Shown here: positions 2,981 to 58,345 of the stretch, one piece after another
Layout: the number at the start of each line of letters is the position of its first letter
Position numbering within the stretch: the first letter of the stretch is position 1
IMG/VR virus record: IMGVR_UViG_3300027766_000002
DNA from: a virus
Lineage: Duplodnaviria; Heunggongvirae; Uroviricota; Caudoviricetes
Direction: 5' to 3' (one strand)
DNA: 64,000 bases
Translations under genes and position numbers: made by a program
Notes under the pieces: model-generated
What the model was told of the DNA's origin: nothing
Seen by the model: only the letters and a program-made list of their open reading frames with translations
The model's database searches: none

Positions 2981-3021
2981 ATGGAAAAGCACATGAACAT
3001 GATTAAAGAGGTGGCGCAATG
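2981..3021 (+). CDS. Leader peptide uORF (MEKHMNMIKEVAQ) translationally coupled to the helicase gene
   Basis: It carries the conserved ATGGAAAAGCACATG initiation motif. Its TGA stop overlaps the helicase ATG (ATGA). It contains the AAAGAGG Shine-Dalgarno for the downstream gene. Confidence 0.35.
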
Positions 3022-4359
3022 ACCACCATTTGCCATACCGGACGCCCATTGTCAGAAGAGTTTGATGATGACTTCCAGAACCGATTAACAGCTTACTACT
3101 GCAAGGATCAGGAGTTCCTGTTGCGCGCCGGGGATTTGGTTGATCCGAGCCAATTTGAAAACGCGGCAAACGCAATATTGGTTAACCTGGTTTCCTCTTA
3201 CTTCCGCATGTACAAGAGCGCACCTTCCAGCACGGCCATTCTCGACCAGCTGAAGCGCGCGAAGAAAGATAAGACGATCCGCGAAGAGCTGTTCCCGGAT
3301 GTGGTCGGCGCCTTCAAGCGTGTATTGGGTGAGAAATTGACAGACACCAAATACATGATTGACCGAGTGGCCACTTTTGCCCGGAGCATAGCTTTTGATG
3401 ACGCGCTGATCAAAGCGGCCGAGCTAAAAGAGAAGGGTGACTTCGAACGCGCCATGGAAGTGATGGCCAAGGTGCAGCTGGTGGGCGCGAGTGACACCAT
3501 AGGCATCTACAACTATCTGGGCGAAGCGGCCGAGCGTTTAAAGCAGCGTGAGTATGAGGCGTCTGAGGATTACGTACCAAACAGCATCACTACCGGCATA
3601 CCGCTGCTGGATCGACTGCTGTACCAGAAAGGGTGGGGGCGTCGTGAAATGGTTCTCTTCATGGGCTTCGCGAAGTCTGGTAAATCGACGGCCATGGGTG
3701 AGTTCTCCATTAACGCTACTTTAAAGGGCTTCAACGTTCTGTACGTCTCGCTGGAAGTTCACACCGCAATCTTGTCTGACCGTTTCGACGCACGTCTTTC
3801 TCAAACCGAAATGACGAAGTTGATCGAGAAGCGTGACGATGTTCATAAGAAGCTGGCCGACCTGGGCGCCAGTACCGGTGTGGGCAATTTGTGGGTTGTG
3901 GAGAGACCGTCTGGCAGCTTGTCACCTGCAGACCTCGATCGATTACTTGAAGGCATGAAGTCGAACGGGATGGTTCCTGACATGGTCGTGGTGGATTACG
4001 CCGACCTGATGAAACCAACACGACGCAGCGGCGATGAACGAGCAGATGTGAAAAGCATCTATACCGATCTCCGCGCAGTCTTCGACAAACACAATGCCGC
4101 TGGCATCACTGCATCCCAGACAAACCGAGAGGGTGGGGCGTCTGAGGTAGCCACGATGATGCACGCCGCAGATAACATTGAAAAGGTGCGTATCGCTGAC
4201 CTGGTAATCTCGATCAACAAAACGGAAGAGGAAGCAACGAAGGGTGAAGCGCGCTTGTACTTTGCAGGCTCTCGTAACCAGAAAGGCAACATCAGCATCC
4301 GAGTAAAGCAGAACCTGGAGCAGATGCGGTTTATTCAGGAAATTCTCGACGTTATCTAA
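3019..4359 (+). CDS. DnaB-like replicative DNA helicase (RecA-fold C-terminal domain)
   Basis: Walker A motif GFAKSGKST, followed by Walker B-like VVVDYADLM and a helicase C-terminal domain. 446 aa. Confidence 0.6.
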   Translation: MTTICHTGRPLSEEFDDDFQNRLTAYYCKDQEFLLRAGDLVDPSQFENAANAILVNLVSSYFRMYKSAPSSTAILDQLKRAKKDKTIREELFPDVVGAFKRVLGEKLTDTKYMIDRVATFARSIAFDDALIKAAELKEKGDFERAMEVMAKVQLVGASDTIGIYNYLGEAAERLKQREYEASEDYVPNSITTGIPLLDRLLYQKGWGRREMVLFMGFAKSGKSTAMGEFSINATLKGFNVLYVSLEVHTAILSDRFDARLSQTEMTKLIEKRDDVHKKLADLGASTGVGNLWVVERPSGSLSPADLDRLLEGMKSNGMVPDMVVVDYADLMKPTRRSGDERADVKSIYTDLRAVFDKHNAAGITASQTNREGGASEVATMMHAADNIEKVRIADLVISINKTEEEATKGEARLYFAGSRNQKGNISIRVKQNLEQMRFIQEILDVI

Positions 4360-4450
4360 AAAATAAAGGCGTGGCAAAAATCGCCACGCCTCATTTCCAA
4401 TTCGAGAAATCAAGTTTCTCGCCCTGTTAAAAACAACAAGGGAAAAACAC

Positions 4451-4531
4451 ATGAGCGGCCATCATACCCCATCTTCCCTAATACACACAAAATTGCCTTC
4501 AAATTATGACCGAAGAGGATTGCTGGCATGA
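4451..4531 (+). CDS. 26-codon leader uORF coupled to the primase gene
   Basis: It starts at the conserved GGAAAAACACATG motif. It has no internal stop, and its TGA overlaps the primase ATG (ATGA). Confidence 0.3.
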   Translation: MSGHHTPSSLIHTKLPSNYDRRGLLA

Positions 4532-5643
4532 GCGACATTAAAGAGCTTTTGACCGAGCTGGACTTTGAGCAGTGGCTCGATACAGAGGGCATCATCTATC
4601 GCCGTGGTGGTGTCAGCGCGCGCGGTCGTGAAATAAACATCAAGGAGTGCCCGGTATGCGGCAGCTCCGGTTGGAAGGTGTATTTCAATCTGACCAACAA
4701 CGTCGGCAAATGCTTTGCGGGTGATCACCCAGAAGAGATTCAATTCAACAAGCTGGTATTCCTGAAGCATTACAGCGGCAAGTCACGCCGTGCATTTGAG
4801 GAATACGTGAACAATGCGCTGCTGGAGCAGGGCTGGGCGCCGAAACGAGAAGAGGTAAAACTGACCAGCGCCGTCGAGCTGGAAGGGCCGGTTTCGTTGC
4901 CGCGTCACTATGAGCTTCCGATCGAGGGTCAACTACCCACTTATCTTGTGGAGAGAAATGTAACGCCTGAGCTGGCCAAATATTTCGACCTTAGATACTG
5001 CGTAGAGGGCAAACATGCTTATGTGGATGTCTACAACGACCAGGTTCGTGGCCAAGATTTCGGTATGCGTATTCTGATACCAATTTACGACCTCGATGGT
5101 GTGATGAAAACCTTCCAGGGGCGTGACGTTACTGGCACTGCGGAGCGCCGCTACCTCTTCCCCATGACGTTGCCGGCGTCAGGTAAGTTTCTCTATAACG
5201 GCCACAACGCAGTGGGTAAACAGACTGTCGTGGTGAGCGAGGGTGCATTTGACGTTATTGGGATCAAGCGAGCACTGTTCGATGAGCCAACGCTGCGGGA
5301 TTACGTTGAGCCAATCGGGACGTTTGGTATGCATTTATCTGGTGTAACGACGCAGGACGAAGAGGATCAGTTAGGTGCATTCCTGACGCTCAAAGCGAAG
5401 GGGCTGAAGAACGTCGTAATGATGTGGGACAGTGAGAAGCAGGCAATCCGAAACACAATGGCCGCCGCGCGTAAGCTGGTGGGGATCGGACTTAACGTGA
5501 AGATTGCCTGTTTGGGCAAAGAGGGCGTTGACCCGGGCGACGCATCTGTTGAGGAAATCATCAAAGCATACTTCCGAGCGAAGCCCTACACTCGCCAGCT
5601 TGAGTTAATGGCAAAGGTAAAAGGAATAGCGGCTTTGGTCTGA
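4528..5643 (+). CDS. DnaG-like DNA primase (zinc-ribbon + TOPRIM)
   Basis: A CPVCGSSGW…CFAGDH zinc-binding motif and a TOPRIM-like VVVSEGAFDVIGI segment. It lies adjacent to the helicase. Confidence 0.65.
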   Translation: MSDIKELLTELDFEQWLDTEGIIYRRGGVSARGREINIKECPVCGSSGWKVYFNLTNNVGKCFAGDHPEEIQFNKLVFLKHYSGKSRRAFEEYVNNALLEQGWAPKREEVKLTSAVELEGPVSLPRHYELPIEGQLPTYLVERNVTPELAKYFDLRYCVEGKHAYVDVYNDQVRGQDFGMRILIPIYDLDGVMKTFQGRDVTGTAERRYLFPMTLPASGKFLYNGHNAVGKQTVVVSEGAFDVIGIKRALFDEPTLRDYVEPIGTFGMHLSGVTTQDEEDQLGAFLTLKAKGLKNVVMMWDSEKQAIRNTMAAARKLVGIGLNVKIACLGKEGVDPGDASVEEIIKAYFRAKPYTRQLELMAKVKGIAALV

Positions 5644-5708
5644 CCTAAGAAAATAAGTAGCTAACCACCAATCATTAATTATAATGGCGACCAAAGTTTA
5701 TAAGAGAG

Positions 5709-6571: not shown

Positions 6572-7030
6572 ATGACAGTTTCAAAAACCGACTTTTCGAA
6601 GATCCCATCCATATCGGGCAACAACATGTTCAGCCTGAAGTGCGAGGAAGTGCTGATCCGCAAGGAGCCAACAAGGGCGAGTTACACGGTCTGCCAGCAC
6701 ACGATTCTGGCGTTCAAAGAAGGTCGGCTGCCGCCCGGCTCATTTAGTGAATGTGTAACGGCTATCCGCGGCGGCAAATGCAAAGCGCTGAAAATGATGG
6801 TCGAGGAAGTTCGCGCCGGTGAATCACTCTACTTCGAAGATTACGGTGCTTTGGTTGCTGAAGTTGCAGCTCGTAACAACCAAAGCAGTTTCGGTGGCCA
6901 GCGTAAGACCAAATCCGCGATGTCACTTCTGCCGTCGCGTAAATCAAAAGCAGAAGACACAACAAAAACGGGCGAGTTTGAGGCTATTACAGACCTCCAC
7001 TCAGCCTTAGTGCAAGAGGAAAACACATGA
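6572..7030 (+). CDS. Hypothetical protein
   Basis: 152 aa ORF. ATGA overlap with the next gene. Confidence 0.45.
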   Translation: MTVSKTDFSKIPSISGNNMFSLKCEEVLIRKEPTRASYTVCQHTILAFKEGRLPPGSFSECVTAIRGGKCKALKMMVEEVRAGESLYFEDYGALVAEVAARNNQSSFGGQRKTKSAMSLLPSRKSKAEDTTKTGEFEAITDLHSALVQEENT

Positions 7031-11031: not shown

Positions 11032-11160
11032 TGATTCCATACATCTCAGAGTTTAGATCCACACCACGCACCTAACCTTGGTGCTCGTGACAAGATTTTT
11101 TTAGCTTTGCAGTATCAACGCCCCTCGAAGGGCTACATATAAAATACAAAGGAAAAACAC

Positions 11161-11772
11161 ATGTCAGAAGTCAAAAAGGTTATCACCGCGTCCGACCGTT
11201 CAGCTAAAGGCGTTGTTAAAGCTGTTGCCGATCTGAGCAAGGTTGCAGTCGAGCTGACAGCTCTGGCGCAGTCTAACGTCAACCTGGCCGAAGAAATTGA
11301 GTTCAAGCAATCCCAGCTGGCCGACCTGGATAATCAGATCAACACTAAAGAGCGTGAAGGTGCTGCCCAGCTGCGTCTGCGTGTTATCGAAAACGAAGAC
11401 CGCGTACTGGCTGACCTGATGAAAGCTCGTGGCCTGGCGACCATCTCCGTTGCTGATCTGAACCTGCTGAACACTCGTGCAGTGAACGCTGAAGCAGGCA
11501 ATGAGCAGGCAGTTGAAGAAGCGCGTACCTCTGCATTCCGTCAGGCTGACTCTGCTGCCAAAGCTCAGATTGCTCAGCTGCAGGGCGATCACCGTGTTGA
11601 AATGGCTGAGCTGAACGCAAACAGCAAAGCGAAAGACAACCGCATCGAGTTCCTCGAAGCGCAGGTGACTCAGTTGCAGGGCGAAGTGAAAGCTGAACGT
11701 GACACTCGTCTGGAAATCGCTAAAGCGGAATCTAACCGCCAGGGCGTTACCGTAAACACCGGTAAGAACTAA
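11161..11772 (+). CDS. Hypothetical coiled-coil protein
   Basis: Preceded by AAAGGAAAAACACATG. 203 aa and strongly alpha-helical/coiled-coil. Confidence 0.55.
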   Translation: MSEVKKVITASDRSAKGVVKAVADLSKVAVELTALAQSNVNLAEEIEFKQSQLADLDNQINTKEREGAAQLRLRVIENEDRVLADLMKARGLATISVADLNLLNTRAVNAEAGNEQAVEEARTSAFRQADSAAKAQIAQLQGDHRVEMAELNANSKAKDNRIEFLEAQVTQLQGEVKAERDTRLEIAKAESNRQGVTVNTGKN

Positions 11773-12677: not shown

Positions 12678-13166
12678 ATGTCAGAAGTTAAACTGCCAGA
12701 GTACCAAAGCATCAAGGTGGTTGGCGCTGCAAAAATCGCTTCAATCACCGGCACTGCAATCGGCCTGGATCTCCACAATAGCATTGTAGAGATTGAAGTT
12801 GGCTGCGCCTGGGTTGCTCGCCACCAACCAGAAGTCGGTGGCTACTTTGTTCGCTATGAAGACGGCTATGAGTCGTATTCACCGGCAGAAGCGTTTGAGA
12901 AAGGTTATCTGGCGCTCGCAGACGCAGGTTTCGCTGCTTCATTTGGCGTCTCGTTTGGTATCGCCATCGAGCTGCTTAAAGAGGGTGATCGTGTGGCTCG
13001 CAAGGGCTGGAACGGTAAAGGGATGTGGTTTGAGCTTCAACGCCCGGACGCTGACAGTGACATGACGCTCCCATACATCTATATGCGTACTGCAGACGGG
13101 CAGAACGTACCGTGGCTGGCCAGCCAAACCGATATGCTCAGTGAAGATTGGGTGATCGTGAAATGA
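12678..13166 (+). CDS. Hypothetical protein (DUF2829-like; a paralogue of 55985..56296)
   Basis: 162 aa. The C-terminal KGWNGKG…DW segment is shared with the ORF at 55985. Confidence 0.45.
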   Translation: MSEVKLPEYQSIKVVGAAKIASITGTAIGLDLHNSIVEIEVGCAWVARHQPEVGGYFVRYEDGYESYSPAEAFEKGYLALADAGFAASFGVSFGIAIELLKEGDRVARKGWNGKGMWFELQRPDADSDMTLPYIYMRTADGQNVPWLASQTDMLSEDWVIVK

Positions 13167-16169: not shown

Positions 16170-17330
16170 ATGCTGACCCTAAAAAAAGAGGTTTCGCATA
16201 TGCGTAGTGAATTTGATTTGGCCAAGGCAGCAGAAAACTGTTCCGCAGAGACGATCGCGTTTCTGCAGACCGTTATCGACTCGCCGCTTGATCAGCTGGA
16301 AGATTTCAGTGATTCCGACCCGGTTTTCAGAAAAGCATTCATGCTTTTCACCCGGCTATCTTTGCTGGTGACTCGCCGCCGTCCCGAGCTTGGCGTCCAC
16401 TGCATTTTGATACACGTTCTGCCTAAAATTGGCGATCTCCCTCTGTCAAAAATCACCAAGGTGGTCATTAACCGGCTGACAAACCCGCTGATCGTGGAAG
16501 GTAAAATTGTTCAGGGTAAACGTGTCTTTTCCGTAATGAAGCAGTTCCTCGCTTGGTGTGTGTTCCAGGGTTATCTAGAGAACTCACCAGTTGGCGACAT
16601 TCCACTGAACAAAGTTGGTGGCTCAAACCCTAAGCCCAGGGAGCGCACGCTAACAGACGCTGAAATATGGGTGTTCTGGCATGTATGGGATTACTTCGAA
16701 GTTTGCGAGGTGACGCGCTGGGCTGCCAGATTGACGCTTGCTGCTGCTCGACGCCCTGACGAGATCCTACGTGCAAAATCCGCTGAGTTTGACCTCACCA
16801 ATAACATATGGAACCAGGGTCGTCGTAACAAGTCGAATCGAGACCACCGGTTGCCCATCAGCCCGATTATGAAGCTCTGTATCGAACGGCTGCTTGCCGC
16901 GGGTGAGGGTAGCGAATGGCTATGCCCATCTAACAAGAAAGCAGGGCGGCCGATGTCAAAGGTGGCCATCAGCCAATCTTTGCGCCGAATCCTCGAAACA
17001 CCAGAAATGCTGGCGGTTGAGCCGTTCACTCCACGTGATCTACGCAGGACTGCAAGGAGCTGTCTGGCAAGTTTGGATGTACCGAGTGATGTATCAAGAA
17101 AGGTTTTAAATCAAAGCCTTGAAGGTATAGACCGTGTGTACGACAGGCACGACTATATAGATCAGATGCAAGAAGCACTGTGCAAATACTCAGTATTTTT
17201 GTTTAATATAGTCGAAAGCGAGGGGGTGGAGGATTTGAGCCACAAATACAAAGGCGACCGTCTGGATCTATCAAACAGTCGCCTTGGACTTGGGGTCGTT
17301 AACTTTGGATCGCAGCAAGTATATCCTTGA
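16170..17330 (+). CDS. Tyrosine recombinase / integrase-family protein (the start may be the internal ATG near 16199)
   Basis: C-terminal catalytic region with ARRPDE…FTPRDLRRTARS…RVYDRHDY (R-[H/R]xxR-Y). Confidence 0.6.
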   Translation: MLTLKKEVSHMRSEFDLAKAAENCSAETIAFLQTVIDSPLDQLEDFSDSDPVFRKAFMLFTRLSLLVTRRRPELGVHCILIHVLPKIGDLPLSKITKVVINRLTNPLIVEGKIVQGKRVFSVMKQFLAWCVFQGYLENSPVGDIPLNKVGGSNPKPRERTLTDAEIWVFWHVWDYFEVCEVTRWAARLTLAAARRPDEILRAKSAEFDLTNNIWNQGRRNKSNRDHRLPISPIMKLCIERLLAAGEGSEWLCPSNKKAGRPMSKVAISQSLRRILETPEMLAVEPFTPRDLRRTARSCLASLDVPSDVSRKVLNQSLEGIDRVYDRHDYIDQMQEALCKYSVFLFNIVESEGVEDLSHKYKGDRLDLSNSRLGLGVVNFGSQQVYP

Positions 17331-17679
17331 GCTTTTCATCTGTTAGAGTGCCGGATGATTTTGTTTTGTCTCGTAAGGCATTGATTATCTGGCGCTCTTC
17401 GTCACTTAGACCAGGGAGGTTTTTCTTTATGAATTGGTGGATGACCGGGTATCGTTCTTCCAAAACCAGCATCATGAAGCGAGTCTCATCTGTGCCTAAA
17501 GCTTCAGCAAGAAGGGATACTTTTTCCAATGGCATCGGCAGACGGCCGGTTTTAATATTGGAGAGATTGTTTGCGTTTTCATAGCCAATCTCAGATGCGA
17601 TCTGAGTCTGCGATTTTGGGGATGTCAAAATAAGCCCCTCAATAAATGCCGAAATACGGTTACCTTTTTTAGCGGCCAT
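17299..17679 (-). CDS. XRE-family helix-turn-helix transcriptional regulator (candidate repressor)
   Basis: HTH segment QTQIASEIGYENANNLSNIKTGRLPMPLEKVSLLAEALG. 126 aa. Convergent with, and overlapping, the recombinase 3' end. Confidence 0.6.
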   Translation of the reverse strand: MAAKKGNRISAFIEGLILTSPKSQTQIASEIGYENANNLSNIKTGRLPMPLEKVSLLAEALGTDETRFMMLVLEERYPVIHQFIKKNLPGLSDEERQIINALRDKTKSSGTLTDEKLKDILAAIQS

Positions 17680-18151: not shown

Positions 18152-18283
18152 ATCTCTTTAGCCTTTCTTAAAATCCAAACCTTGTTACTAGCCTGCGCGT
18201 TAATGGTCTCATTCATTGCGCGCAATGTTATTATCACCACTCAGAAAACAAATTGTTTTCATAAACAAGAGATGGAAAAGCAC

Positions 18284-20578
18284 ATGAAAAATAAACAAAA
18301 AATTAGAAAAGAGGTTCTGACATTTCGCGAAAGTGTACGTAAAGTCGTTGTCATGCTTTCTGGTAAAGATATTCCTGTGGCGGAGCGTGGTAGCCGTGCA
18401 TACGTCGAATATAACAAGGATGGTAAGCCATGCATGGTAAATCTTCCTTCACTGCCAGATGATGCGACTGATGGCCTCATGAACGCGATCCGTGGCTTCC
18501 TTGACCACGAAGTCGCTCACCTCCTTTTCACCGACTCGAAACTGGCATTTAAGCTGCTCGATAAGAAAGACAGCCCAGCTTTTCACCTCTGGAATGCCGT
18601 AGAAGATACCTTCATTGAACGACGTATGGGTGAAGTTTTCTCTGGATCTAAACGCAACCTTGTCAATACGCAACGTCATGTAATTGAAAAACTTTTCGTT
18701 CCGAAAGTGGATGATGCACTAAAGGCTTTATCTCGTAACCCGCGAGAACTCTTTCTTAAGTTCCTGTTAATGCCAGCTTTACGCGCCTGGGCAGGACAAA
18801 CGCCTTTTGTTGAGTTCATGGAGCCGTATTGGGCTTATGTTCGCGATCCTGTATCAAAACTAGATAAAGCTGGTGTGCCGGCTGCTGTGCCAATGTTGAT
18901 GAGCACCGAAGACTGCATCAAGCTGGCAGGCCGAATTTCACTGGCTTTAAAGGAAGAAATGGAGAAACCGGAAGGTAAATCTGGCCATGGTGATTCGGAA
19001 GAAAATGATAAGGAAAATGATTCGCCTGATGATGTAGGTAGTGAACAACCTACTAAATCAAATGATGAATCTAATAGTGATAAGCCTGGTAGTGTCGATG
19101 AGACGCAGGAGGAAGAAGAGCCTGCTCCTGTAATTAATAGTAATGAAGATAATATAAAAGATAAGGAAGACGGCTCTGAATCAGTTCCCGACTCCAGCAA
19201 CGCTAATGACTCCCAGCCTGAAGATGGTGACGCTCACGAAGATGACGCCCCAGCAAAATCAGGTGATGGTGATGATATACCAGAAGGTGAAGAAGAATCT
19301 GAGCAGTCTGAGGGGTTTGGTGGTTTCGAGAGCGACTCGGACGACAATGATCCAGATAATGAGCAGCCTGAAAGTGGTTCGGGCGGTGCAGACGATACTG
19401 GTTCAGCGGCCAACTCAGATGACCAGCAAAGCACACCAGGTGATCTAGAAAGTGATGGTCGTCAGGAAGCCACCCAGGGCGATCTAAACGAAGAAGATGG
19501 CGGTACTGATGACATTCCATTGGACGCAGCGTTTAAGGCGCTGGAAGGCACTGAGGTGGCTCCAGAGCAGGGCATGGAGGAAGCGCTCAACGAGGTAATG
19601 GCCAACGAGCTGATAGGTGTGCCAAAAGGCTCATATCGCCCATATCAACGCTCATATGACTTTATTGGCCCGATTGATGATGTCGAGAACCATCTCCGCA
19701 AAACTCATAAAGCTTTTGGCCGCATCCATCTTAACCGTGGTTTAAAGAACTGGCGTATCGACGACGAAGGCACCAGTTTATTTGCCTCGAATGTCGAGCG
19801 TCGTCTCGCTGATGGATCGGCCTCAACACTGGCCAAAGACCTTGAACGTGCCATTGCGAGTCGTAACAAAGTCCAGTTCGTACCTGGTCAACGTCGTGGA
19901 AAAGTGCATAGCGCCAATTTGTACCGACTGTCTATGAACGATGACCGCGTATTCCGTCGCAAGGAAGACCATAAGGCAGTAAACGCTTGTGTGCAGCAGG
20001 TTATCGACTTGTCTGGCTCGATGCAGGGTTCGAAAATTTGCCTTGCACTGGCCTGCGCCTACACAATTTCTGACGCGCTCGATCGCATAAATGTTCCGAA
20101 CATCATTACCGGGTTTACAACTGCAGGCTGTGACATCGATGCAGCAAGGAAGATGGGTCGCGGCTACAACCGCTATGAATCATTGATGCTCCCCACTATC
20201 AAGGGTTGGCACGAACGAGCAAACACGCCCACCACACGCAAACGCTTAGGCTGCTTGTCAGAGAGATTCCCCCTTGAAGACAACATAGATGGTGAATCAA
20301 TTATGGCTTTAGCTCAGCACTTTGCTGGCCGCATTGAGGATAAGAAAATCATGCTTGTCATGAGTGACGGTGCACCAGCTGGAATCGGTCATGACTTCAG
20401 CGACCATCTTAAAGCTGTGGCGGAGTCAATTGAAGGCAGTGGTCTTATTGAACTAATGGGTATCGGCATTCTTACGGATGCTCCCAGCCGGTTCTACAAG
20501 AACCACGTTGAAGTCAAAAAGGTGGAAGACCTGGGTGCCACTGTCGTGAGGAAATTGTCTCAATTGATACTTGGCTAA
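18284..20578 (+). CDS. cobT: vWA-domain protein with a long acidic low-complexity linker (CobT-like)
   Basis: Start at the GGAAAAGCACATG motif. The C-terminal von Willebrand A domain carries a MIDAS motif VIDLSGSMQGS. The central ~170 aa is D/E/S-rich. It pairs with the downstream AAA+ ATPase. Confidence 0.55.
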   Translation: MKNKQKIRKEVLTFRESVRKVVVMLSGKDIPVAERGSRAYVEYNKDGKPCMVNLPSLPDDATDGLMNAIRGFLDHEVAHLLFTDSKLAFKLLDKKDSPAFHLWNAVEDTFIERRMGEVFSGSKRNLVNTQRHVIEKLFVPKVDDALKALSRNPRELFLKFLLMPALRAWAGQTPFVEFMEPYWAYVRDPVSKLDKAGVPAAVPMLMSTEDCIKLAGRISLALKEEMEKPEGKSGHGDSEENDKENDSPDDVGSEQPTKSNDESNSDKPGSVDETQEEEEPAPVINSNEDNIKDKEDGSESVPDSSNANDSQPEDGDAHEDDAPAKSGDGDDIPEGEEESEQSEGFGGFESDSDDNDPDNEQPESGSGGADDTGSAANSDDQQSTPGDLESDGRQEATQGDLNEEDGGTDDIPLDAAFKALEGTEVAPEQGMEEALNEVMANELIGVPKGSYRPYQRSYDFIGPIDDVENHLRKTHKAFGRIHLNRGLKNWRIDDEGTSLFASNVERRLADGSASTLAKDLERAIASRNKVQFVPGQRRGKVHSANLYRLSMNDDRVFRRKEDHKAVNACVQQVIDLSGSMQGSKICLALACAYTISDALDRINVPNIITGFTTAGCDIDAARKMGRGYNRYESLMLPTIKGWHERANTPTTRKRLGCLSERFPLEDNIDGESIMALAQHFAGRIEDKKIMLVMSDGAPAGIGHDFSDHLKAVAESIEGSGLIELMGIGILTDAPSRFYKNHVEVKKVEDLGATVVRKLSQLILG

Positions 20579-20675
20579 GTCGTGCCGATAAAGATAAGTA
20601 GGCAACTACTTATCTTTTTATCTTAAAATTATTACTATAAGCACCAGATAAACAAAAACGAGAAAGGAAAAGCAC

Positions 20676-43124: not shown

Positions 43125-43163
43125 TTTATCGTTGATAGGTAGTCAACTACCTACTATCATGAC

Positions 43164-43189
43164 GGCCACTATATGTAGTGGCCTTTTTA
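43164..43189 (+). terminator. Hairpin + T-run immediately upstream of the nrdA RBS (terminator or attenuator)
   Basis: ggccactatatgtagtggcc followed by TTTTTA. Confidence 0.4.
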
Positions 43190-43201
43190 TTGGGAAAACA
43201 C

Positions 43202-45526
43202 ATGATTAACATCCAGAAACGTGACGGGCGATCGGAGCCACTGAGCGAAGAAAAGTATAACCGCGTGGTAATGTGGGCGGTCGAAGGCGTTGAAAACGTC
43301 AGTGCATCAGCCATTGCCCTCGGTGCTTCTGCCAGCATTTTTGACGGCATGACCACCAGCCAGTTGCATGAGGCGCTGGTGAAAGCCGCAGCTGATTTGA
43401 TCAGCCCGGAAACTCCGAACTACTCCCAGGTTGCAGCCCGTCTTAATCTGTTCAAAATGCGCAAAGATGCGTTTGGTCAGTATGAATACCCCGACCTGTA
43501 CATGCACATCGTGAACCTCGTTAATCGTGGCATTTACGATGAAGATTTGTTGAAACGCTATCATCCAAACGAAATTAACGAGCTGGGCAAATATCTCGAT
43601 ACCGCTCGCGATGATCTGTTTGGCTACGCGGCCACCGTGCAGCTGCAGGGCAAATATCTTGTCCAGAACCGCGTCACTGGAAAAATTCACGAAGCACCGC
43701 AACACATTTATATGCTGGTGGGCATGTGTCTGTTCCAGGATTGGCAGGACGGCACCAGTGGTAAAACTCGTCTGGAAATGGTCAAAGGCTTCTATGATGT
43801 CACCAGTACATTCAAGCTCTCATTGCCAACCCCAATCATGGCAGGTGTTCGCACACCGACGCGCCAGTTCTCAAGCTGCGTACTGATTGAATCTGGCGAC
43901 AGTCTAAAAGCCATCAATGGTACAGCTGCCGCGATCGTCGATTACGTTTCTCAACGTGCCGGCATCGGCATTAGCTTTGGCCGCATCCGTGCGCTGGGAA
44001 GCGAAATCCGTGGTGGCGAAGCGACCCACACTGGCGTTATCCCGTTCCTGAAGCATTTCCAGACAGCCGTTAAATCCTGTTCTCAGGGTGGTGTCCGTGG
44101 CGGCGCAGCTACTGCGTATTATCCGTTCTGGCATCTGGAAACTGAAAGCCTGCTGGTGCTGAAAAACAACCGCGGTGTGGATGAGAACCGTGTACGTCAT
44201 CTTGACTACGGTGTGTTGCTGAACCGTCTGATGTACCGCCGTCTTATTCGTGAAGAGAACATCACTCTGTTTAGCCCGAATGATGTGCCTGGTCTTTATG
44301 ACGCTTATTTCGAAGATCAGGATCTATTCGAAGAACTTTACCTGAAATACGAAGCTGACCCGGCTATTCGCAAGAAGAGTGTTTCCGCCGTTGAGCTGTT
44401 CTCTTCCATGATGCAGGAGCGCGCTTCTACCGGTCGTATTTATATCGGCAACGCTGATCACATGAACGAGCATAGCTCCTTCATCCAGAGCATTGCGCCA
44501 GTGCGTATGTCAAACCTGTGTGCTGAGATTACGCTGCCAACCAAACCGCTGGTGAAAACTGACGATCCCAACGGCGAGATCGCTCTTTGTACACTGTCAG
44601 CGTTTAACCTCGGCGCCATCGATTCTCTGGGTGACCTGCAGGAAGTCGCATTCTTTGCAGTCGCGGCACTCGACTCACTGCTTGATTACCAAAACTACCC
44701 AATGGAAGCCGCAGAGCGTGGAGCAAAAGCGCGCCGCAGCCTGGGTATTGGTGTAACCAACTTTGCGTATTACCTGGCGAAGAATGGCTTTAAATACTCC
44801 GATCTCGAAGGCAACAAGCTGGTTCACGAAACGTTTGAAGCGATTCAGTATTACCTTCTGGACGCCAGCTGCAAATTAGCTGAAGCGAAAGGCGCGTGTG
44901 AGTGGTTCGACGAAACCAAATACTCTCTCGGCCAGCTGCCAATTGACCACTATCGCAAGTCCCTGGATGGTCAGGAGATCAATGCGAAGCATCCGCTGCT
45001 ACTCCCATGGGAACAGCTGCGCCACCGCATCAAAGTGCATGGTCTGCGTAACTCTACGCTGACAGCTCAGATGCCGTGCGAAACGTCGAGCCAGATCACC
45101 AACTCTACGAACGGCATCGAGCCGCCGCGCGGCGCTGTGTCCATCAAATCCTCTAAAGAAGGCGCCATCAAAATGGTTGTGCCTGACTATGAGAACCTGA
45201 AAGGGCAATACGAATACCTGTGGGATATGCCGAGCAACTACGGCTATCTGACCAAAGTGGCGATCATTCAGAAGTTCTTCGACCAGTCTATTTCGACCAA
45301 CACGAACTATGATCCTGAGCGCTTCCCTAATGGCAAAGTCCCAATGGAAACGCTGCTTGATGATCTGCTCACCGCCTACCAGCTGGGCATTAAAACTCTC
45401 TATTACCACAACACGCGCGACGGTGCCGGCCAAACGGAAGACACCAGCGATGTGACCAGCGCGCTCCAGGCTAATCAAGAGCCAATTCTTGACGACGAGC
45501 CTGATTGCGACACCTGCACCATCTAA
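43202..45526 (+). CDS. nrdA: Ribonucleotide reductase class Ia large subunit NrdA
   Basis: N-terminal ATP-cone. Near-identity to E. coli NrdA blocks, for example LPTPIMAGVRTPTRQFSSCVLIE. C-terminal CxxC tail. Confidence 0.95.
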   Translation: MINIQKRDGRSEPLSEEKYNRVVMWAVEGVENVSASAIALGASASIFDGMTTSQLHEALVKAAADLISPETPNYSQVAARLNLFKMRKDAFGQYEYPDLYMHIVNLVNRGIYDEDLLKRYHPNEINELGKYLDTARDDLFGYAATVQLQGKYLVQNRVTGKIHEAPQHIYMLVGMCLFQDWQDGTSGKTRLEMVKGFYDVTSTFKLSLPTPIMAGVRTPTRQFSSCVLIESGDSLKAINGTAAAIVDYVSQRAGIGISFGRIRALGSEIRGGEATHTGVIPFLKHFQTAVKSCSQGGVRGGAATAYYPFWHLETESLLVLKNNRGVDENRVRHLDYGVLLNRLMYRRLIREENITLFSPNDVPGLYDAYFEDQDLFEELYLKYEADPAIRKKSVSAVELFSSMMQERASTGRIYIGNADHMNEHSSFIQSIAPVRMSNLCAEITLPTKPLVKTDDPNGEIALCTLSAFNLGAIDSLGDLQEVAFFAVAALDSLLDYQNYPMEAAERGAKARRSLGIGVTNFAYYLAKNGFKYSDLEGNKLVHETFEAIQYYLLDASCKLAEAKGACEWFDETKYSLGQLPIDHYRKSLDGQEINAKHPLLLPWEQLRHRIKVHGLRNSTLTAQMPCETSSQITNSTNGIEPPRGAVSIKSSKEGAIKMVVPDYENLKGQYEYLWDMPSNYGYLTKVAIIQKFFDQSISTNTNYDPERFPNGKVPMETLLDDLLTAYQLGIKTLYYHNTRDGAGQTEDTSDVTSALQANQEPILDDEPDCDTCTI

Positions 45527-45617
45527 AGCGTGGGGCAGCCGCCCCACCGTCTCCAATCAATTGAACACCTGTGCCAGCGCATCACAATGCTGGCACGTAA
45601 AACAACGAGGAAAACAC

Positions 45618-46751
45618 ATGAGCCAATATTCAACGTTCCGGCTTGGGGCGAACGACGCGACAAAAGAACCTATGTTCCTTGGCCTGTCAGTAAACGTATC
45701 TCGCTATGACCAGCAAAAATATCGCCTGTTTGAGAAGCTGATCGAGAAGCAGCTCTCTTTCTTCTGGCGCCCTGAAGAAGTGGACATTTCTAAAGATCGC
45801 ATTGAGTTCAACAACAAACTGCAACCGCATGAGCGACACATCTTCCTGAGCAACCTCCGTTACCAAACTCTTCTGGACTCCGTACAGGGTCGCAGCCCGA
45901 ACGCTACATTGCTGCCGCTGGCGTCCATTCCAGAGCTGGAGACGTGGATTGAAACGTGGTCATTCTCAGAGACCATTCATAGCCGCAGCTACACGCACAT
46001 CATTCGTGGCATGGTCGATAACCCGGCTGAAATTTTCGACGGCATTGTGAGCGATGAAGAAATTGTGAGCCGCGCCGCATCGGTTACTGAGCAGTATGAC
46101 GCCCTGTATCAGCTGATCTGCGCTCGCGAGTATCTATCAGAGCAGGAAGGCCGTTTTGATGAGATTTATGGCGAACTTGCCATGGAGAAACAGGTTTACC
46201 GCACCCTGGTAGCAGTAAACGCTCTGGAGGCAATTCGCTTCTATGTCAGCTTCGCCTGCACGTTTTCTTTTGGTGAGCGTGGACTACTGGAAGGCAATAC
46301 AAAAATTATGCGCTTCATCGCGCGTGATGAGGCTCTGCATTGTCACTCTACAGAAATGATGATCAAGTACATGCGCGTCGGCAAAGAGGGTGAGCAGTGG
46401 AAGGCTGTGGCTGATGAGCTTGAGCCCTTTGTTTACCAGACCATGAAGGACGTGGCTGAGCAGGAGATGCGCTGGGCAGAACATCTTTTCAAAGATGGCT
46501 CTATGATCGGCCTCAATGCAGAAATCCTGAAGCAGTACGTGAAATATCGCACCAACGTTAGCCTGCGTCGCATGGGGCTTAAGCCAATTTTCGAAGATGC
46601 GTTAAATGACCCACTGCCGTGGATGAACAAATGGCTGCTGAGTGACCAGGTGCAAGTGGCGCCGCAAGAAGTTGAGGTTGGCTCATATCTGGTTGGGCAG
46701 ATTGACTCAACGGTGAGTTCGAAGAGCCTGAAGAAGTTCGCCGATATTTGA
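45618..46751 (+). CDS. nrdB: Ribonucleotide reductase class Ia small subunit NrdB
   Basis: KEPMF…RYDQQKY…LSFFWRPEEVD, highly similar to E. coli NrdB. Preceded by GAGGAAAACACATG. Confidence 0.95.
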   Translation: MSQYSTFRLGANDATKEPMFLGLSVNVSRYDQQKYRLFEKLIEKQLSFFWRPEEVDISKDRIEFNNKLQPHERHIFLSNLRYQTLLDSVQGRSPNATLLPLASIPELETWIETWSFSETIHSRSYTHIIRGMVDNPAEIFDGIVSDEEIVSRAASVTEQYDALYQLICAREYLSEQEGRFDEIYGELAMEKQVYRTLVAVNALEAIRFYVSFACTFSFGERGLLEGNTKIMRFIARDEALHCHSTEMMIKYMRVGKEGEQWKAVADELEPFVYQTMKDVAEQEMRWAEHLFKDGSMIGLNAEILKQYVKYRTNVSLRRMGLKPIFEDALNDPLPWMNKWLLSDQVQVAPQEVEVGSYLVGQIDSTVSSKSLKKFADI

Positions 46752-51990: not shown

Positions 51991-52130
51991 GTGTTACCGC
52001 TATTCTAGACCAAACAATTAGTGTTACAACATATTTTTTAAGCCTAATTAAATTGCTTTTTCCCCTAACTCAGTTTGGCAAAATAGCTGTCATCAACGAA
52101 GCACATTTAAAACAACGAAAGGAAAAGCAC

Positions 52131-52934
52131 ATGTCCAACGCAGCCCAAACAAACGTTTCTGACCTCGATGCTCTGTCTGCGATCTTGGCATCCCTTGATG
52201 AAACCCCAGCCGCCGCTGACACTCAGATGAAAGGCATTGATTCTTTGCTCGATGAGCTGGAAACGAACGCAGCTGAGGCCGCCACATCGACACCAGAGAG
52301 CATCGTGGCAAAGATCGAAAACGAATTACCGGTTACGCCAGCTGCTGCTTCAGGTGATATGGAGCAGGTGATCATTGATTTAGAAGAGTCGAACACGGCC
52401 ACACCGCCAGAGAAATCAACTGAGATTTTAGCCGGTGGCGAAGAGAATATTCTCCCGGTGATTGAAGAACCGGCCGCACCTGAAGTTCAGGAGGAAAAGC
52501 AACCTGAACCTAAGCCTAAAAAAGCCAGCACACCTCGTGGCGCTCGATTCACCTTTGACGGTAAGGACGATGCCTTCTTTGAGAAAGCTGGCCTGCAGCG
52601 CGAGGATTTCATGAAGTGCTACAACGAGGCTCCAGTGAAGGCAATGGACAAAATCCAAAACATTATGCACTGGTTCAGTGGTGGCCCGGATCTGAGCGTA
52701 TATACCCGTATTTCGTTGCACTCATTAATCGCTGACAAAACGGTCAGCAGCAATAGCCTCAAACTGGCTATGATGAGCTATCCAGAGAAGCCCTATCCAG
52801 TTGGCACTGCCTCCACTCAGGCTGGCCAAATGATGGCAGTATTTCCGGCGCTGGGTATCGCTGAGAAAGATGGGAAATCCTTAACCCTTAATGCTGATTC
52901 TCCTATCGTCAAAAAGTTTATGGCGGAAGAGTAA
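52131..52934 (+). CDS. Hypothetical acidic protein
   Basis: Preceded by AAAGGAAAAGCACATG. 267 aa. Confidence 0.5.
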   Translation: MSNAAQTNVSDLDALSAILASLDETPAAADTQMKGIDSLLDELETNAAEAATSTPESIVAKIENELPVTPAAASGDMEQVIIDLEESNTATPPEKSTEILAGGEENILPVIEEPAAPEVQEEKQPEPKPKKASTPRGARFTFDGKDDAFFEKAGLQREDFMKCYNEAPVKAMDKIQNIMHWFSGGPDLSVYTRISLHSLIADKTVSSNSLKLAMMSYPEKPYPVGTASTQAGQMMAVFPALGIAEKDGKSLTLNADSPIVKKFMAEE

Positions 52935-53494: not shown

Positions 53495-53582
53495 CATAAG
53501 GGCGCAAAGCGCCCTTATTACATTGCTAACGAAATAATAATTTGCGATCATATAGGTAGTTAGCTACCTACTAAGGGTTATC

Positions 53583-54197: not shown

Positions 54198-54380
54198 CAC
54201 CACCACAAACCCAACTTATCCAACCTGCTTCCGTATATTTATATACTGGTTAGTTATTTATTTATAGAGAAGCAGGTCGGTCGTAAGCAACCCACCAGCC
54301 CTTGTCATACCTAGGTTTTTTGGTAGATCACCTTCCCAGAAAAATTATGATCGCTGGACATTAATCAAAAGGAATTACAC

Positions 54381-54614
54381 ATGGCACACCCTACCAACGT
54401 AGTGGCACTGATCGACACTGATTTTCTCGCCAATGCACGTCAGCTACTCAAAAGCCGCGATCAGTCATTCACGCTTTATGAGTGGGCGCTTAAGGCGATC
54501 CGCGGTGGACAGCATACCAATGAAGTTGAGCAGCTGATCGGCGAGTTAATCAACGAAGTTCATGGGCTGAATGTTCAACTTCACGGCCGCACTGAGCAGA
54601 AAGCCACCGCTTAA
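54381..54614 (+). CDS. Hypothetical protein
   Basis: Preceded by AAAGGAATTACACATG. 77 aa. Confidence 0.4.
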   Translation: MAHPTNVVALIDTDFLANARQLLKSRDQSFTLYEWALKAIRGGQHTNEVEQLIGELINEVHGLNVQLHGRTEQKATA

Positions 54615-55984: not shown

Positions 55985-56296
55985 GTGAACATGTTGTTGT
56001 CTTACGCAGACGTTTTGACCGGCATTAAAACCGGCGCCTCCTTCGCTCGTCAGAAATGGCCTGCCGACACATCCATACGACTCCGCACCGGGGTGATCAG
56101 CTCAAGCGAATACCAGAAAACTGAAGGCAAAGTGTTCTTCGGCCTTCCGCTCAACCTTTTTGAAGTCCACCAGCCAGATGGTTACACCGTATTTCCTGGT
56201 TTAGAGATGGTTCTTCCAAATGGCAAGGTGGTTGATTACCTGGCTTCGATGATTGACCAGCTCGCCTGCGATTGGAAACGAGTGGAAACTAAATGA
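55985..56296 (+). CDS. Hypothetical protein (DUF2829-like; a paralogue of 12678..13166)
   Basis: 103 aa. Shares an ARxKW…DW pattern with the 12678 ORF. Confidence 0.4.
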   Translation: MNMLLSYADVLTGIKTGASFARQKWPADTSIRLRTGVISSSEYQKTEGKVFFGLPLNLFEVHQPDGYTVFPGLEMVLPNGKVVDYLASMIDQLACDWKRVETK

Positions 56297-56997: not shown

Positions 56998-57086
56998 CCC
57001 GTAACGTAGTGCTTTTACCCCGTTTTGGGCGCGCTACGATATGACCACTTAGAAAACAAGTTGTTAAATAAACAAAGGAAAAACGC

Positions 57087-57512
57087 ATGTTTGGTTTGCT
57101 GAAAAAGAAAACCCGTAAAGCAGTAATCGAAGTTAAAAAAATGGAGAACCGCGACGCGGTTGAAGCGACTGTCTGGGGCGGTTACTACATTTCATATTTC
57201 GATGGCGACTGCTCACCAGCAGAAGTCGCTGTGCTTGAAAAGACCATGGCCGCAACTCCTTCATTTGCGCCTTTCGCTGGTGAGATCGCTCAGCTCAGCT
57301 CTAACGTGCGTCAGCAGTTCGAAGCAAGCGCACGCCGCGCAGCTGCCCAGGCTCTTCGTGAGTTAGAAGATATTGCAGGCACCACTGATGCAGTGGACGT
57401 TCTGTGCCTGTGTATCGACATTGCTGACAACGATGGCATTGGCGAAGACGAAATGAAAGCCCTTAAGAAGATTGCTCAGGCACTTCAACTTTCACTCGAT
57501 CCGTACATCTGA
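57087..57512 (+). CDS. TerB-like domain protein (tentative)
   Basis: Preceded by AAAGGAAAAACGCATG. The C-terminal DIADNDGIGEDEMKALKKIAQAL resembles a TerB motif. Confidence 0.35.
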   Translation: MFGLLKKKTRKAVIEVKKMENRDAVEATVWGGYYISYFDGDCSPAEVAVLEKTMAATPSFAPFAGEIAQLSSNVRQQFEASARRAAAQALRELEDIAGTTDAVDVLCLCIDIADNDGIGEDEMKALKKIAQALQLSLDPYI

Positions 57513-57664
57513 TGATCCGAAACCTTCGCCTCGGCGCTGCCGGGTTCTTTGCACTGCTTGCAGTCATGGTGGATTTTGCCAGCCGGTTGATGTCAGTGCT
57601 CACCGATGGCGCATTGCTTGCGGTCGCAGTTGTCATTCTTCTACCACTACTGAAAAAGCAGTAA
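57512..57664 (+). CDS. Small membrane protein (50 aa)
   Basis: TGATG overlap with the upstream stop. Hydrophobic throughout. Followed by a terminator. Confidence 0.3.
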   Translation: MIRNLRLGAAGFFALLAVMVDFASRLMSVLTDGALLAVAVVILLPLLKKQ

Positions 57665-57666
57665 CC

Positions 57667-57693
57667 AAAGGCGTCTTCGGACGCCTTTTTATT
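57667..57693 (+). terminator. Rho-independent terminator (identical hairpin to 28957)
   Basis: aaggcgtcttcggacgcctt followed by TTTTATT. Confidence 0.6.
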
Positions 57694-57811
57694 CGCTCCA
57701 CTCCCCTGCCCAAGCCGAACCAAATTGCTTAGTGGCCTTTTCCGATGGTGGCAATATACACCCATCGAGAAAACAAGTTGTTATCACAAATAAGAAAACA
57801 AGGAAAAGCAC

Positions 57812-58345
57812 ATGTGTATTTTATGCGAATTGAAAAAAGCTGCCGCCAAGCAATCTAAAGAGCGCACCTCTGAAGTCAGCCTCTCAGAAGTGGCCAAACA
57901 TGCTCGTGCGATCGTCGGCAAAGAGAATCTGCATCCAGTGCAAGCTATTGCAGCACTGCAATTCCTGATGCCGGTAATGAAAGACCCAGAGATGATGCTG
58001 GAGTTGCTTATTAAGGCTGACGATGAAGCCCTGGCAAACAAAGCCCCTCGCACTAGTGATAGCACTGTAGGCTCGATCCAACGTGTAGAAGAGCTGGAAA
58101 AAGAAGTCGCACGCCTTAATTCCCAGATCAATCTGCAGGCCACCAATGGAAAGGCAATGGGTGACGCTCTGGCATCGTTAAGCGCGAGCATGAATATCGA
58201 GCTGCCGGTTCTGGATGGGGCAAACCCGCGCTCTACCGTAAAAGCCTTGTCTGCTGTGGCAGACAAACTCGAAAGCCATAAAGCAGGTATTGAGTTCTGG
58301 ATGCGTGAAATTACCAACCGCCACGATCTAAACAAAGTCGCTTAA
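57812..58345 (+). CDS. Hypothetical coiled-coil protein
   Basis: Preceded by AAGGAAAAGCACATG. 177 aa. Confidence 0.5.
   Translation: MCILCELKKAAAKQSKERTSEVSLSEVAKHARAIVGKENLHPVQAIAALQFLMPVMKDPEMMLELLIKADDEALANKAPRTSDSTVGSIQRVEELEKEVARLNSQINLQATNGKAMGDALASLSASMNIELPVLDGANPRSTVKALSAVADKLESHKAGIEFWMREITNRHDLNKVA

Follow-up and report, generated by a model that had tools for sequence, protein, structure and literature searches.

The stretch of DNA analysed here (the window; 64,000 nucleotides, IMG/VR virus record IMGVR_UViG_3300027766_000002) raises the question of why approximately 20 starts of replication, recombination, nucleotide-metabolism, and accessory genes share nearly the same sequence, a start region with the consensus AAGGAAAA-R-CAC-AUG. 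The analysis indicated that this motif is real, class-specific, under selection, and effective at the level of the mRNA, and that it is most probably a shared translational operator. A more specific answer, held with evenly balanced confidence, is that the motif would be the operator of a translational repressor of the FljA family encoded by the element itself, because the start region of Salmonella fliC differs little from the motif and because an FljA homologue is encoded by close relatives of the element.

At 95% identity, the window matches a 109-kb plasmid of Cronobacter sp. JZ38 (NZ_CP017663.1), the complete relative. Over dnaE and cobS it is approximately 74% identical to SSU5-like phages and to several hundred plasmids of approximately 100-115 kb, which come from Klebsiella, Enterobacter, Escherichia, Salmonella, and Cronobacter. 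Because of these matches, the window is taken as part of a phage-plasmid of the SSU5/pHCM2/pMT1 type. The comparison set consisted of NZ_CP017663.1 with its annotation, phage SSU5, a Raoultella element, and a divergent Klebsiella element, and was extended with loci from Kluyvera, Y. pestis, Buttiauxella, Photobacterium, and Halomonas and with IMG/VR fragments. Counts given for the relative refer to the 131 starts of NZ_CP017663.1, of which 110 are non-structural and 21 belong to packaging, head, or tail genes. Escherichia coli K-12 was used for host-gene comparisons as a stand-in for the true host.

The names helicase, primase, cobT/cobS-like, sbcCD, and nrdAB were taken from the Prokaryotic Genome Annotation Pipeline (PGAP) annotation of the 95% relative. 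RecA was recognized by a PF00154 match, and the single-stranded DNA-binding protein (SSB) encoded at 27935-28939 is of the gp32 family (PF08804, 3.2e-60; Pfam). The dnaE gene, which is not listed in the PGAP table of the relative, was named from the annotation of the corresponding stretch of related phages and plasmids and by tblastn, which aligned it colinearly with SSU5 DnaE. The labels that the first-pass annotation, a reading made from the sequence without database searches, had given to the motif genes were confirmed by Pfam, the PGAP names of the relative, related annotations, and tblastn to SSU5.

Expected motif counts were obtained from dinucleotide-preserving shuffles of the 64-kb window. 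The exact 15-mer AAGGAAAARCACATG was present in four copies (0.00 expected), and 13 copies were found with up to two mismatches (0.37 expected), all on the plus strand. The core 9-mer AARCACATG was found 16 times (1.73 expected), again always on the plus strand and always at the start of an open reading frame (ORF). No prior selection of sites was needed to see the motif, as motif words top the list of repeated 10-mers and 12-mers in the complete 109-kb relative. The first-pass annotation had listed 18 ATGs with the motif, and all 18 carry it, including the three sites (2981, 18272, and 27923) that it had singled out for an extra in-frame ATG (MEKHM). One further site, at the DUF1653 gene (ATG 7027), had been overlooked, and the total is 19. 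The sites, and the two upstream ORFs (uORFs) that two of them open, are as follows.

2981-2995, plus strand: site ATGGAAAAGCACATG; ATG 2993 opens the helicase-leader uORF
2993-3022, plus strand: helicase uORF, MNMIKEVAQ and stop, 9 codons; its TGA overlaps the helicase ATG 3019 (ATGA)
4439-4453, plus strand: site AGGGAAAAACACATG; ATG 4451 opens the primase-leader uORF
4451-4531, plus strand: primase uORF, 26 codons; its TGA overlaps the primase ATG 4528 (ATGA)
7015-7029, plus strand: site AGAGGAAAACACATG (CAAGAGGAAAACACATG); ATG 7027, DUF1653 gene; within the end of the upstream ORF, with an ATGA overlap
11149-11163, plus strand: site AAGGAAAAACACATG; ATG 11161, 203-aa coiled-coil protein
18272-18286, plus strand: site ATGGAAAAGCACATG; ATG 18284, cobT-like gene; a AGAAAACAAATTGTTTT palindrome lies 5' at 18243
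20664-20678, plus strand: site AAGGAAAAGCACATG; ATG 20676, cobS-like AAA ATPase
22068-22082, plus strand: site AGGCAAAAGCACATG; ATG 22080, dnaE; inside a 67-aa upstream ORF (21902-22105); kept in all lineages examined
27923-27937, plus strand: site ATGGAGAAACACATG; ATG 27935, gp32-family SSB; CAC or TAC depending on the lineage
30201-30215, plus strand: site AGGATAAAACACATG; ATG 30213, RecA-like; lineage-specific, the SSU5-type sequence being GGAGCCTAATC-ATG
31395-31409, plus strand: site TCGGAAAAACACATG; ATG 31407, 62-aa membrane protein; kept, with the protein only 32% identical to its SSU5 orthologue
34642-34656, plus strand: site GGGTATAAACACATG; ATG 34654, 89-aa acidic protein; kept in five lineages at approximately 45% protein identity
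38596-38610, plus strand: site CTGGAAGAACACATG; ATG 38608, sbcD
39911-39925, plus strand: site AGAGAAAAGCACATG; ATG 39923, sbcC; inside a 78-aa ORF (39690-39926) whose TGA overlaps the ATG; lineage-specific
43190-43204, plus strand: site TTGGGAAAACACATG; ATG 43202, nrdA; directly 3' of a hairpin (43164-43183) and T-run; SSU5 has ..GGGTGATAC-ATG
45606-45620, plus strand: site CGAGGAAAACACATG; ATG 45618, nrdB; kept in SSU5 and a third lineage
52119-52133, plus strand: site AAGGAAAAGCACATG; ATG 52131, 267-aa protein of unknown function
54369-54383, plus strand: weaker site AAGGAATTACACATG; ATG 54381, 77-aa protein
57075-57089, plus strand: site AAGGAAAAACGCATG; ATG 57087, TerB-like gene; a AGAAAACAAGTTGTT palindrome lies 5' at 57051; the 95% relative has ..AAAACAC-ATG
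57800-57814, plus strand: site AAGGAAAAGCACATG; ATG 57812, 177-aa protein; a palindrome lies 5' at 57768

Alignment of these sites showed that information content is limited to positions −13 to +4, plus a weak A/T-rich tract at −21 to −16, and is at background beyond −21 and +4. The motif is therefore neither a duplicated cassette nor a promoter at a fixed distance; sigma-70-like matches were also no more frequent than in shuffled sequence, and a fixed-distance promoter or longer cassette was rejected. The part that is fixed across sites consists of the A-run, R, C-A-C, and AUG, while the GG of the Shine-Dalgarno is found 3 to 7 nt from CAC, varying by site and by lineage. In other words, because this distance varies, the "15-nt motif" is a sliding Shine-Dalgarno (AAGGA) followed by a fixed, sequence-specific, start-proximal box. 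The sequence from Shine-Dalgarno to ATG had been described as almost invariant, which is accurate for the box but overstated for the Shine-Dalgarno. Position −4 is a purine in every site and C is invariant at −3 and −1. ACA overlaps the AUG in 18 of the 19 sites, GGAA is likewise present in 18 of 19 (GGAG is found only at 27923), and 12 of the 19 have A at +4. The A-run and CAC are linked, since 20 of the 26 starts in the relative that are A-rich at −8 to −4 continue with CAC, compared to 2 of the 105 other starts.

The distribution of the motif among genes is uneven. In the relative, 21 of the 110 non-structural starts carry it and none of the 21 structural starts does (Fisher p = 0.024), the major capsid gene being among those without it. 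The description of the motif genes in the first-pass annotation, as a replication and nucleotide-metabolism set, was partly correct: many such genes are included and no structural gene is, but the TerB-like gene and small ORFs of unknown function also belong to the set, and several DNA-metabolism genes (ligase, thyA, dhfr, a MazG-like gene, and the 5'-3' exonuclease) do not.

Comparison to other genomes indicated that the spacer is not a general property of bacterial or phage starts. CAC is the most common triplet at −3 to −1 in the relative (22 of 131 starts), and it was found at none of the 117 annotated E. coli K-12 starts, which included the ribosomal-protein, tufA, and fusA operons; a comparable frequency of the spacer before host genes, which would have spoken against a regulon, was thus not seen in this stand-in host. 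CAC was also not among the eight most common triplets at this position in 85 starts from the early region of phage T4. No start within two mismatches of the motif was found among the 117 E. coli or the 85 T4 early-region starts, and position weight matrix matches of at least 16 were absent from 100 kb of E. coli and 50 kb of T4 sequence. The spacer 7-mers AAAGCAC and AAAACAC head 17 of the 131 starts in the relative, while in T4 no spacer 7-mer was found more than two times. Motif sites are less structured than other starts (minimum free energy over 60 nt of −4.4 vs. −9.1 kcal/mol, p = 8e-6), and 18 of 20 motif starts have an intergenic gap of at least 50 nt on their 5' side, compared to 34 of 66 other plus-strand genes (p = 0.0045).

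Conservation of the motif was assessed by comparing orthologous starts anchored on their N-termini. The box was retained at cobS, dnaE, gp32 (as CAC or TAC), sbcD, nrdB, the primase uORF, and two small ORFs, in lineages that included SSU5, Raoultella, Kluyvera, Y. pestis, Buttiauxella, and two further lineages from IMG/VR. The 30 nt that precede the retained sites show no relationship to one another, and N-terminal identity is as low as 32-45%. The cobS motif, for example, is kept in SSU5, pMT1, Kluyvera, and Raoultella with an N-terminus approximately 38% identical and unrelated upstream DNA. The number of sites also differs, approximately 22 in the lineage of the window and approximately 12 in the SSU5 type. 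The extra sites in the lineage of the window (cobT, recA, sbcC, 52131, and 54381) converge on the same consensus, and other lineages have the motif at yet other genes. Because SSU5-type orthologues of cobT start with ..GGAAATTCTC-ATG, which is not the motif, the site at the cobT-like gene was gained in the lineage of the window. More generally, the motif has been gained independently, at different genes in different lineages. The pattern indicates ongoing selection by a conserved reader, because the box is kept while flanks and N-termini diverge and because the gains converge on one consensus.

The motif was not found in more distant relatives. A Photobacterium relative with a cobS 50% identical has A-rich spacers and no CAC. 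Modules of cobT, cobS, dnaE, gp32, exonuclease, and recA without the CAC box were seen on a 1-Mb contig of Photobacterium ganghwense and on a Halomonas chromosome; both hosts are non-enterobacterial, and both modules are on large chromosomal contigs. Scanning IMG/VR for the exact 15-mer yielded mostly single chance matches. Of the loci with three matches, those checked by protein similarity were all SSU5-type relatives except for one unrelated locus, in which only one of the three matches has the CAC-ATG box.

At two sites the motif opens a short uORF rather than the gene itself. The SSU5 primase is also preceded by a uORF, of 23 codons and encoding an unrelated peptide, with the same motif start and the same ATGA overlap. 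Because the motif start and the overlap are kept while the peptide differs, the motif-started uORF of the primase is a conserved device for translational coupling. The 9-codon uORF of the helicase was found only in the lineage of the window; in SSU5 the helicase gene starts directly at the motif ATG. A separate Shine-Dalgarno, GAGGTG, serves the helicase gene of the window. Since helicase and primase are presumably needed in small amounts, the location of the motif on their uORFs suggests a control point rather than maximal yield. In the annotation of the 95% relative these two genes begin at the downstream ATGs (the equivalents of 3019 and 4528) and neither uORF is listed, while motif ATGs elsewhere are the annotated starts. 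Motif ATGs can be used as start-codon markers in this plasmid family, and reveal two uORFs lacking from the table of the relative.

A reader of the motif was searched for. The family of T4 RegA, which the first-pass annotation had named as an analogue, is not the one involved: phmmer --max, with a query verified against PDB 1REG, found no RegA homologue among the ORFs translated in six frames from the window, from the relative, and from SSU5 (best E 1.5), nor was PF01818 matched in Pfam scans of ORFs from the window and the rest of the relative. These scans, of approximately 95 ORFs, contained no RegA, RegB, CsrA, KH, S1, CSD, or toxin-RNase family and no MazF/PemK family. For the hypothetical ORFs of the window, Pfam recovered the gp32-family SSB and RecA and no RNA-binding regulator, and a PHROGs search with 10 small conserved ORFs returned only families of unknown function. 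Rfam 15 had no matches at the gathering score on either strand of the 64 kb, and a scan for tRNA and tmRNA genes found none. A trans-acting antisense RNA was rejected as a candidate, as scanning the two strands of the relative (109 kb) for duplexes yielded nothing beyond the antisense of the motif sites, apart from weaker pairings of which the strongest (−16.4 kcal/mol) is inside a tail gene.

A candidate reader is encoded in the part of the relative that lies outside the window. At 76638-77165 on the minus strand, the 95% relative encodes an FljA-family protein that matches PF03614 over its full length (1-170 of 170, E 2e-61), and the syntenic SSU5_121 is annotated in the SSU5 record as a putative repressor of phase-1 flagellin. 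This FljA-like gene was found by tblastn in 834 PLSDB plasmids, 344 of them from Klebsiella and 62 from Yersinia. The carrier plasmids are mostly non-mobilizable and, among the matches listed, mostly approximately 100-115 kb. Its presence in the element from which the window comes is assumed, on the grounds that the gene was found in the 95% relative and on a scaffold of 97.5% identity. The phage-plasmid protein aligns over its full length with canonical FljA, to which it is 32-33% identical. A structure model predicted a tandem Sm/Hfq-like fold, and the protein is predicted to bind single-stranded RNA; a PDB sequence search with it returned no match. In the relatives the gene is third in a leftward operon, after a DEAD-box helicase gene and a 101-aa ORF. 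The first start region of this operon is of the motif type, CUAAGGAAAGACAC-AUG, which would allow feedback.

The fliC mRNA is the only known target of FljA. FljA binds the operator region of this mRNA, blocks its translation, and thereby speeds its decay (PMC4122451 and PMC2652032, which both cite Yamamoto & Kutsukake 2006). The fliC start region, GAUAAGGAAAAGAUC-AUG, was established from 77 metagenomic flagellin loci and a published primer (AAGGAAAAGATCATGGCACAA, PMC6287149). It (AAGGAAAAGAUCAUG; AAGGAAAAGAUC-AUG) is identical at 13 of 15 positions to the phage-plasmid consensus AAGGAAAARCAC-AUG (AAGGAAAAGCAC-AUG). Measured against the 12-nt consensus, fliC has two mismatches; all 202 control starts, from E. 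coli and T4, have at least three. The fljB-type start region, which is located next to hixR, is AAGGAAAAUUUU-AUG and has four mismatches, all of them at −4 to −1. In the phase-variation model FljA spares fljB, since fljB and fljA are co-expressed from one operon. Three loci in the flagellin scan encode canonical FljA, and in the one locus that was compared by coordinates fljA is directly 3' of the flagellin gene.

The phage-plasmid system would differ from FljA and fliC in several respects. There are approximately 20 putative targets rather than one, they are phage DNA-metabolism genes rather than flagellin, and the box is RCAC in the phage-plasmid and GAUC in fliC. The FljA-like gene is part of an operon with a DEAD-box helicase gene, and no fljB or hin partner was seen; the Pfam scans and the PGAP table of the relative contained neither flagellin nor invertase families. 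Flagella are absent from K. pneumoniae and Y. pestis, and because the gene is kept in such non-flagellate hosts, flagellin repression cannot be its conserved role in phage-plasmids.

The proposed system would also resemble the T4 RegA regulon, in which one repressor acts on many early mRNAs, many of them from replication genes. RegA operators are free of structure, carry an A-tract on their 5' side, and are located at the AUG or directly before it (PMC3014915), and the phage-plasmid motif has all three properties. The genes that carry it, helicase and primase (via their uORFs), dnaE, SSB, recA, sbcCD, and nrdAB, include no structural gene. Unlike the phage-plasmid box, which is A+C-rich and near-identical between sites, RegA sites are A+U-rich and so loose that their definition required selection from random sequence (SELEX).

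A shared RNA operator of a translational repressor, as had first been suggested, remains the best-fitting reading of the motif, because it is class-specific, conserved amid diverged flanks, repeatedly gained, present on uORFs, unstructured, and overlapping the AUG; the candidate repressor, however, is a homologue of FljA and not of RegA. The alternative named in the first-pass annotation, a phage-specific ribosome-loading signal, found neither support nor contradiction in these results. An FljA-like protein bound over the spacer and the AUG would keep the 30S subunit off the mRNA, which, left untranslated, would decay, as has been described for FljA on the fliC mRNA. The result would be a single post-transcriptional switch for the whole lytic set of DNA-metabolism genes, which might provide the plasmid-prophage state with a second lock or might shut off early genes late in lytic growth. 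The binding of the FljA-like protein to the motif sites, and its timing, are the inferred parts of this mechanism. A broader proposal is offered tentatively and with less than even confidence: FljA-family tandem-Sm proteins might, by origin and chief use, be translational repressors of SSU5-type phage-plasmids that gate approximately 20 lytic genes for DNA replication, recombination, and dNTP synthesis through the box AAGGAAAA-R-CAC-AUG, with helicase and primase gated through their uORFs. The Salmonella FljA and fliC leader would then be a domesticated offshoot, and carriage of pHCM2 in S. Typhi, of pMT1-like elements, or of the very common elements of Klebsiella and E. coli could cross-repress the fliC of the host.

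Several observations weigh against an FljA-type operator. The FljA-like gene is not inside the 64-kb window, its own start region is without the motif, and its product might only repress host flagellin. Covariation between protein and box was not seen, in that a lineage with a 35%-identical FljA-like protein still has AAARCAC-AUG and its helicase start is without CAC. The comparison to fliC is one of start regions, −12 to +3 being a putative site of FljA contact. The fliC start region of E. coli K-12, AUAGGAUAACGAAUC-AUG, has eight mismatches in register, yet a motile isolate of E. coli lost its motility when given a plasmid with fljA(z66) (PMC2652032). Because the E. coli fliC start differs and motility was nonetheless abolished, the start region may not be the sole determinant recognized by FljA, or may not be one at all. 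Immediately before its Shine-Dalgarno, the fliC leader has a further sequence, AUCAAGUUGUAAUUGAU, which resembles the phage-plasmid element AAACAAGTTGTTT and shares an 8-nt core with the phage-plasmid repeat AGAAAACAAnTTGTTT, found just downstream of GATAAT-type −10 boxes. FljA-type proteins could in fact recognize this palindromic element instead of the start-proximal box, or could have a bipartite site.

The palindrome is a second repeated element of the window. Copies of AGAAAACAA-N-TTGTTT (also AAACAAGUUGUUU) are at 2959, 18243, 32492, 49856, 57051, 57768, 62418, and 62469, and SSU5 has approximately 17 plus-strand copies. They lie 6-10 nt downstream of GATAAT-type −10 boxes, before motif and non-motif genes alike. 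The palindrome is probably the operator of a DNA-binding repressor, for which an XRE-family gene on the minus strand (17299-17679) is a possible source, or it could be an RNA hairpin in the 5' leader. A different inverted repeat, TAGGTAG-N4-CTACCTA, is present in three copies (0 expected; 31354-31371, 43136-43153, and 53553-53570) within the 17-nt spacer of sigma-70-like promoters, such as TTGATA-17-TATCAT at 43132-43160. SSU5 has AAGTA..TACTT at the corresponding places, which suggests a second operator class. The region 43132-43204 contains the predicted nrdA promoter, followed by a GC-rich hairpin and T-run (43164-43183, kept in SSU5) and then the motif start. This hairpin looks like a leader terminator or attenuator, or a stabilising 5' hairpin.

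Among the other explanations for the motif, the one that survives best, although it is considered unlikely, is a house-style start region of high efficiency, an unstructured A/C spacer, poor in G and U, on which the independently initiated early cistrons have converged and which has no dedicated regulator. With optimal spacing of the Shine-Dalgarno and A at +4, it would simply be the most effective ribosome entry site in enterobacterial hosts. Such a region would account for the low structure of the sites and their greater accessibility, both markedly different from other starts, for their position mostly after intergenic gaps, where stand-alone ribosome entry is needed, for the A at +4 in 12 of 19 sites, and for a Shine-Dalgarno that slides relative to CAC by distances a ribosome tolerates. 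The constancy of the consensus across lineages is also what would be seen if the reader were the conserved host ribosome. However, selection for efficiency does not predict one fixed word, and the A-run is followed by CAC in 20 of 26 starts and almost never by AAA, ACA, or AAC. The most highly expressed genes are without the motif, both the structural genes with the major capsid gene (0 of 21) and the E. coli starts with the ribosomal-protein, tufA, and fusA genes (0 of 117), while it is present on the uORFs of helicase and primase, presumably low-dose products. This explanation was ranked below the FljA-type operator because structural and host ribosomal-protein genes do not have the motif.

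It is more doubtful that the motif is an operator for another reader, for which the gp32-family SSB, host Hfq, and a small phage-plasmid protein were considered. A gp32-family protein is encoded at 27935-28939 and its own start region, unstructured and A-rich, has the motif. In T4 and RB69, gp32 represses only its own mRNA, by nucleation at a pseudoknot and cooperative binding that is not sequence-specific (PMC3014915), and such binding cannot explain a box shared by 19 genes; no Rfam match to a gp32-type pseudoknot was found in the window, in which no search aimed at pseudoknots was made. Hfq would read the motif through its distal face as three A-R-N triplets (AGG-AAA-ARC). In its favour are the single-stranded, A-rich nature of the sites and the purine present at −4 throughout, and the FljA-like candidate is itself Sm/Hfq-like by predicted fold, but the A-R-N reading leaves the invariant C at −3 and −1, which is not an Hfq feature, unexplained. 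The FljA-like candidate is also a tandem-Sm protein of a different family, and no small RNA partner was found, nor is a complementary RNA encoded anywhere in the 109-kb relative. Approximately 60 ORFs of unknown function leave room for a small phage-plasmid protein, but the FljA-like protein has the sole RNA-binding domain among the ORFs scanned with Pfam and PHROGs.

The MazF-leaderless model, in which a toxin yields near-leaderless mRNAs, is contested. Cleavage of the motif by an endoribonuclease that would inactivate or remodel early mRNAs, either of the MazF type at the ACA formed by A−2, C−1, and A+1 or of the RegB type in the Shine-Dalgarno, is very improbable here. ACA overlaps the AUG in 18 of the 19 sites, as a MazF-type enzyme would need, and the succession of GGA, A-rich stretch, and pyrimidine/purine alternation recalls the extended RegB consensus GG*AGRAYARAA, which in T4 also starts from the GGA of the Shine-Dalgarno and is confined to early genes (PMC3014915). 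However, RegB needs GGAG or GGAU, and 18 of the 19 sites have A rather than G as the fourth base. The conserved part of the motif also reaches the AUG, neither enzyme requires the whole 10-nt box for cleavage, and Pfam scans had no RegB or MazF/PemK match.

Little credence is given to the motif as a recombination boundary or mobile regulatory cassette that promotes modular exchange of genes, even though the lineage-specific accessory genes at 11161, 57087, and 57812 carry it and the element encodes RecA-like, SbcCD, and exonuclease functions, because only 13-15 nt are common to the sites, with information at background outside −21 to +4, because the motif is kept at orthologous, non-mosaic genes while both flanks diverge gradually, and because it is always in frame at a fixed distance from the start codon. 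Least probable is a DNA-level signal (a promoter or initiator of phage-specific transcription, a CATG methylation site, or a primase or replication signal), which the A/T-rich tract at −21 to −16, the CATG formed by C(−1) and ATG, and the two encoded DNA methyltransferases might suggest, but the tract has no near-invariant position like that of a −10 hexamer and no fixed-distance −35, several sites are inside upstream coding sequence, the single minus-strand copy in relatives belongs to a minus-strand gene so that the motif tracks gene orientation, and methylation was rejected since neither CATG nor CACATG is enriched genome-wide (observed/expected 0.79 and 1.0).

Other features of the window were noted. 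The dnaE gene, encoding the Pol III alpha subunit (22080-25679), consists of two ORFs in the same frame, of 785 and 389 aa, parted by an insert of approximately 75 nt that contains three in-frame stops and its own Shine-Dalgarno and ATG (AAGAGGCACCAATG, ATG 24510). The intact SSU5 DnaE (1172 aa) aligns colinearly over this insert at 79% identity, and the 95% relative is split likewise, without a coding sequence listed at that place. The window encodes either a two-piece DnaE or a pseudogene. Two ORFs (12678-13166 and 55985-56296) have anti-Thoeris Tad2-like domains (PF11195), and the ORF at 58400-58735 belongs to the GP17 superinfection-exclusion family (PF17420, 7e-45); these are accessory anti-defence and exclusion cargo. 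Six copies of TACATACCGCAGT (0.02 expected; at 35713-35887, 37020-37032, and 39761-39773) flank the gene of a RepB-family initiator on the minus strand (35948-36967), except for one stray copy within a small ORF 5' of sbcC, and are presumably iterons of a plasmid origin.

Full-text literature searches returned no paper that describes how the genes of SSU5-type elements are regulated, the motif itself, or what the FljA-like gene does in them. SSU5-type phage-plasmids are common, and include pHCM2 of S. Typhi, relatives of Y. pestis pMT1, and hundreds of plasmids of Klebsiella, E. coli, and Enterobacter. If the FljA-type operator is real, a post-transcriptional regulon would decide whether the lytic replication machinery is made in these elements, which would bear on the stability of the plasmid-prophage, its induction, and its copy number. 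FljA, known as a regulator with a single target, would acquire a plausible ancestral function and approximately 20 natural operator variants from which its RNA code could be read, and cross-talk would be predicted between plasmid carriage and the expression of host flagellin.

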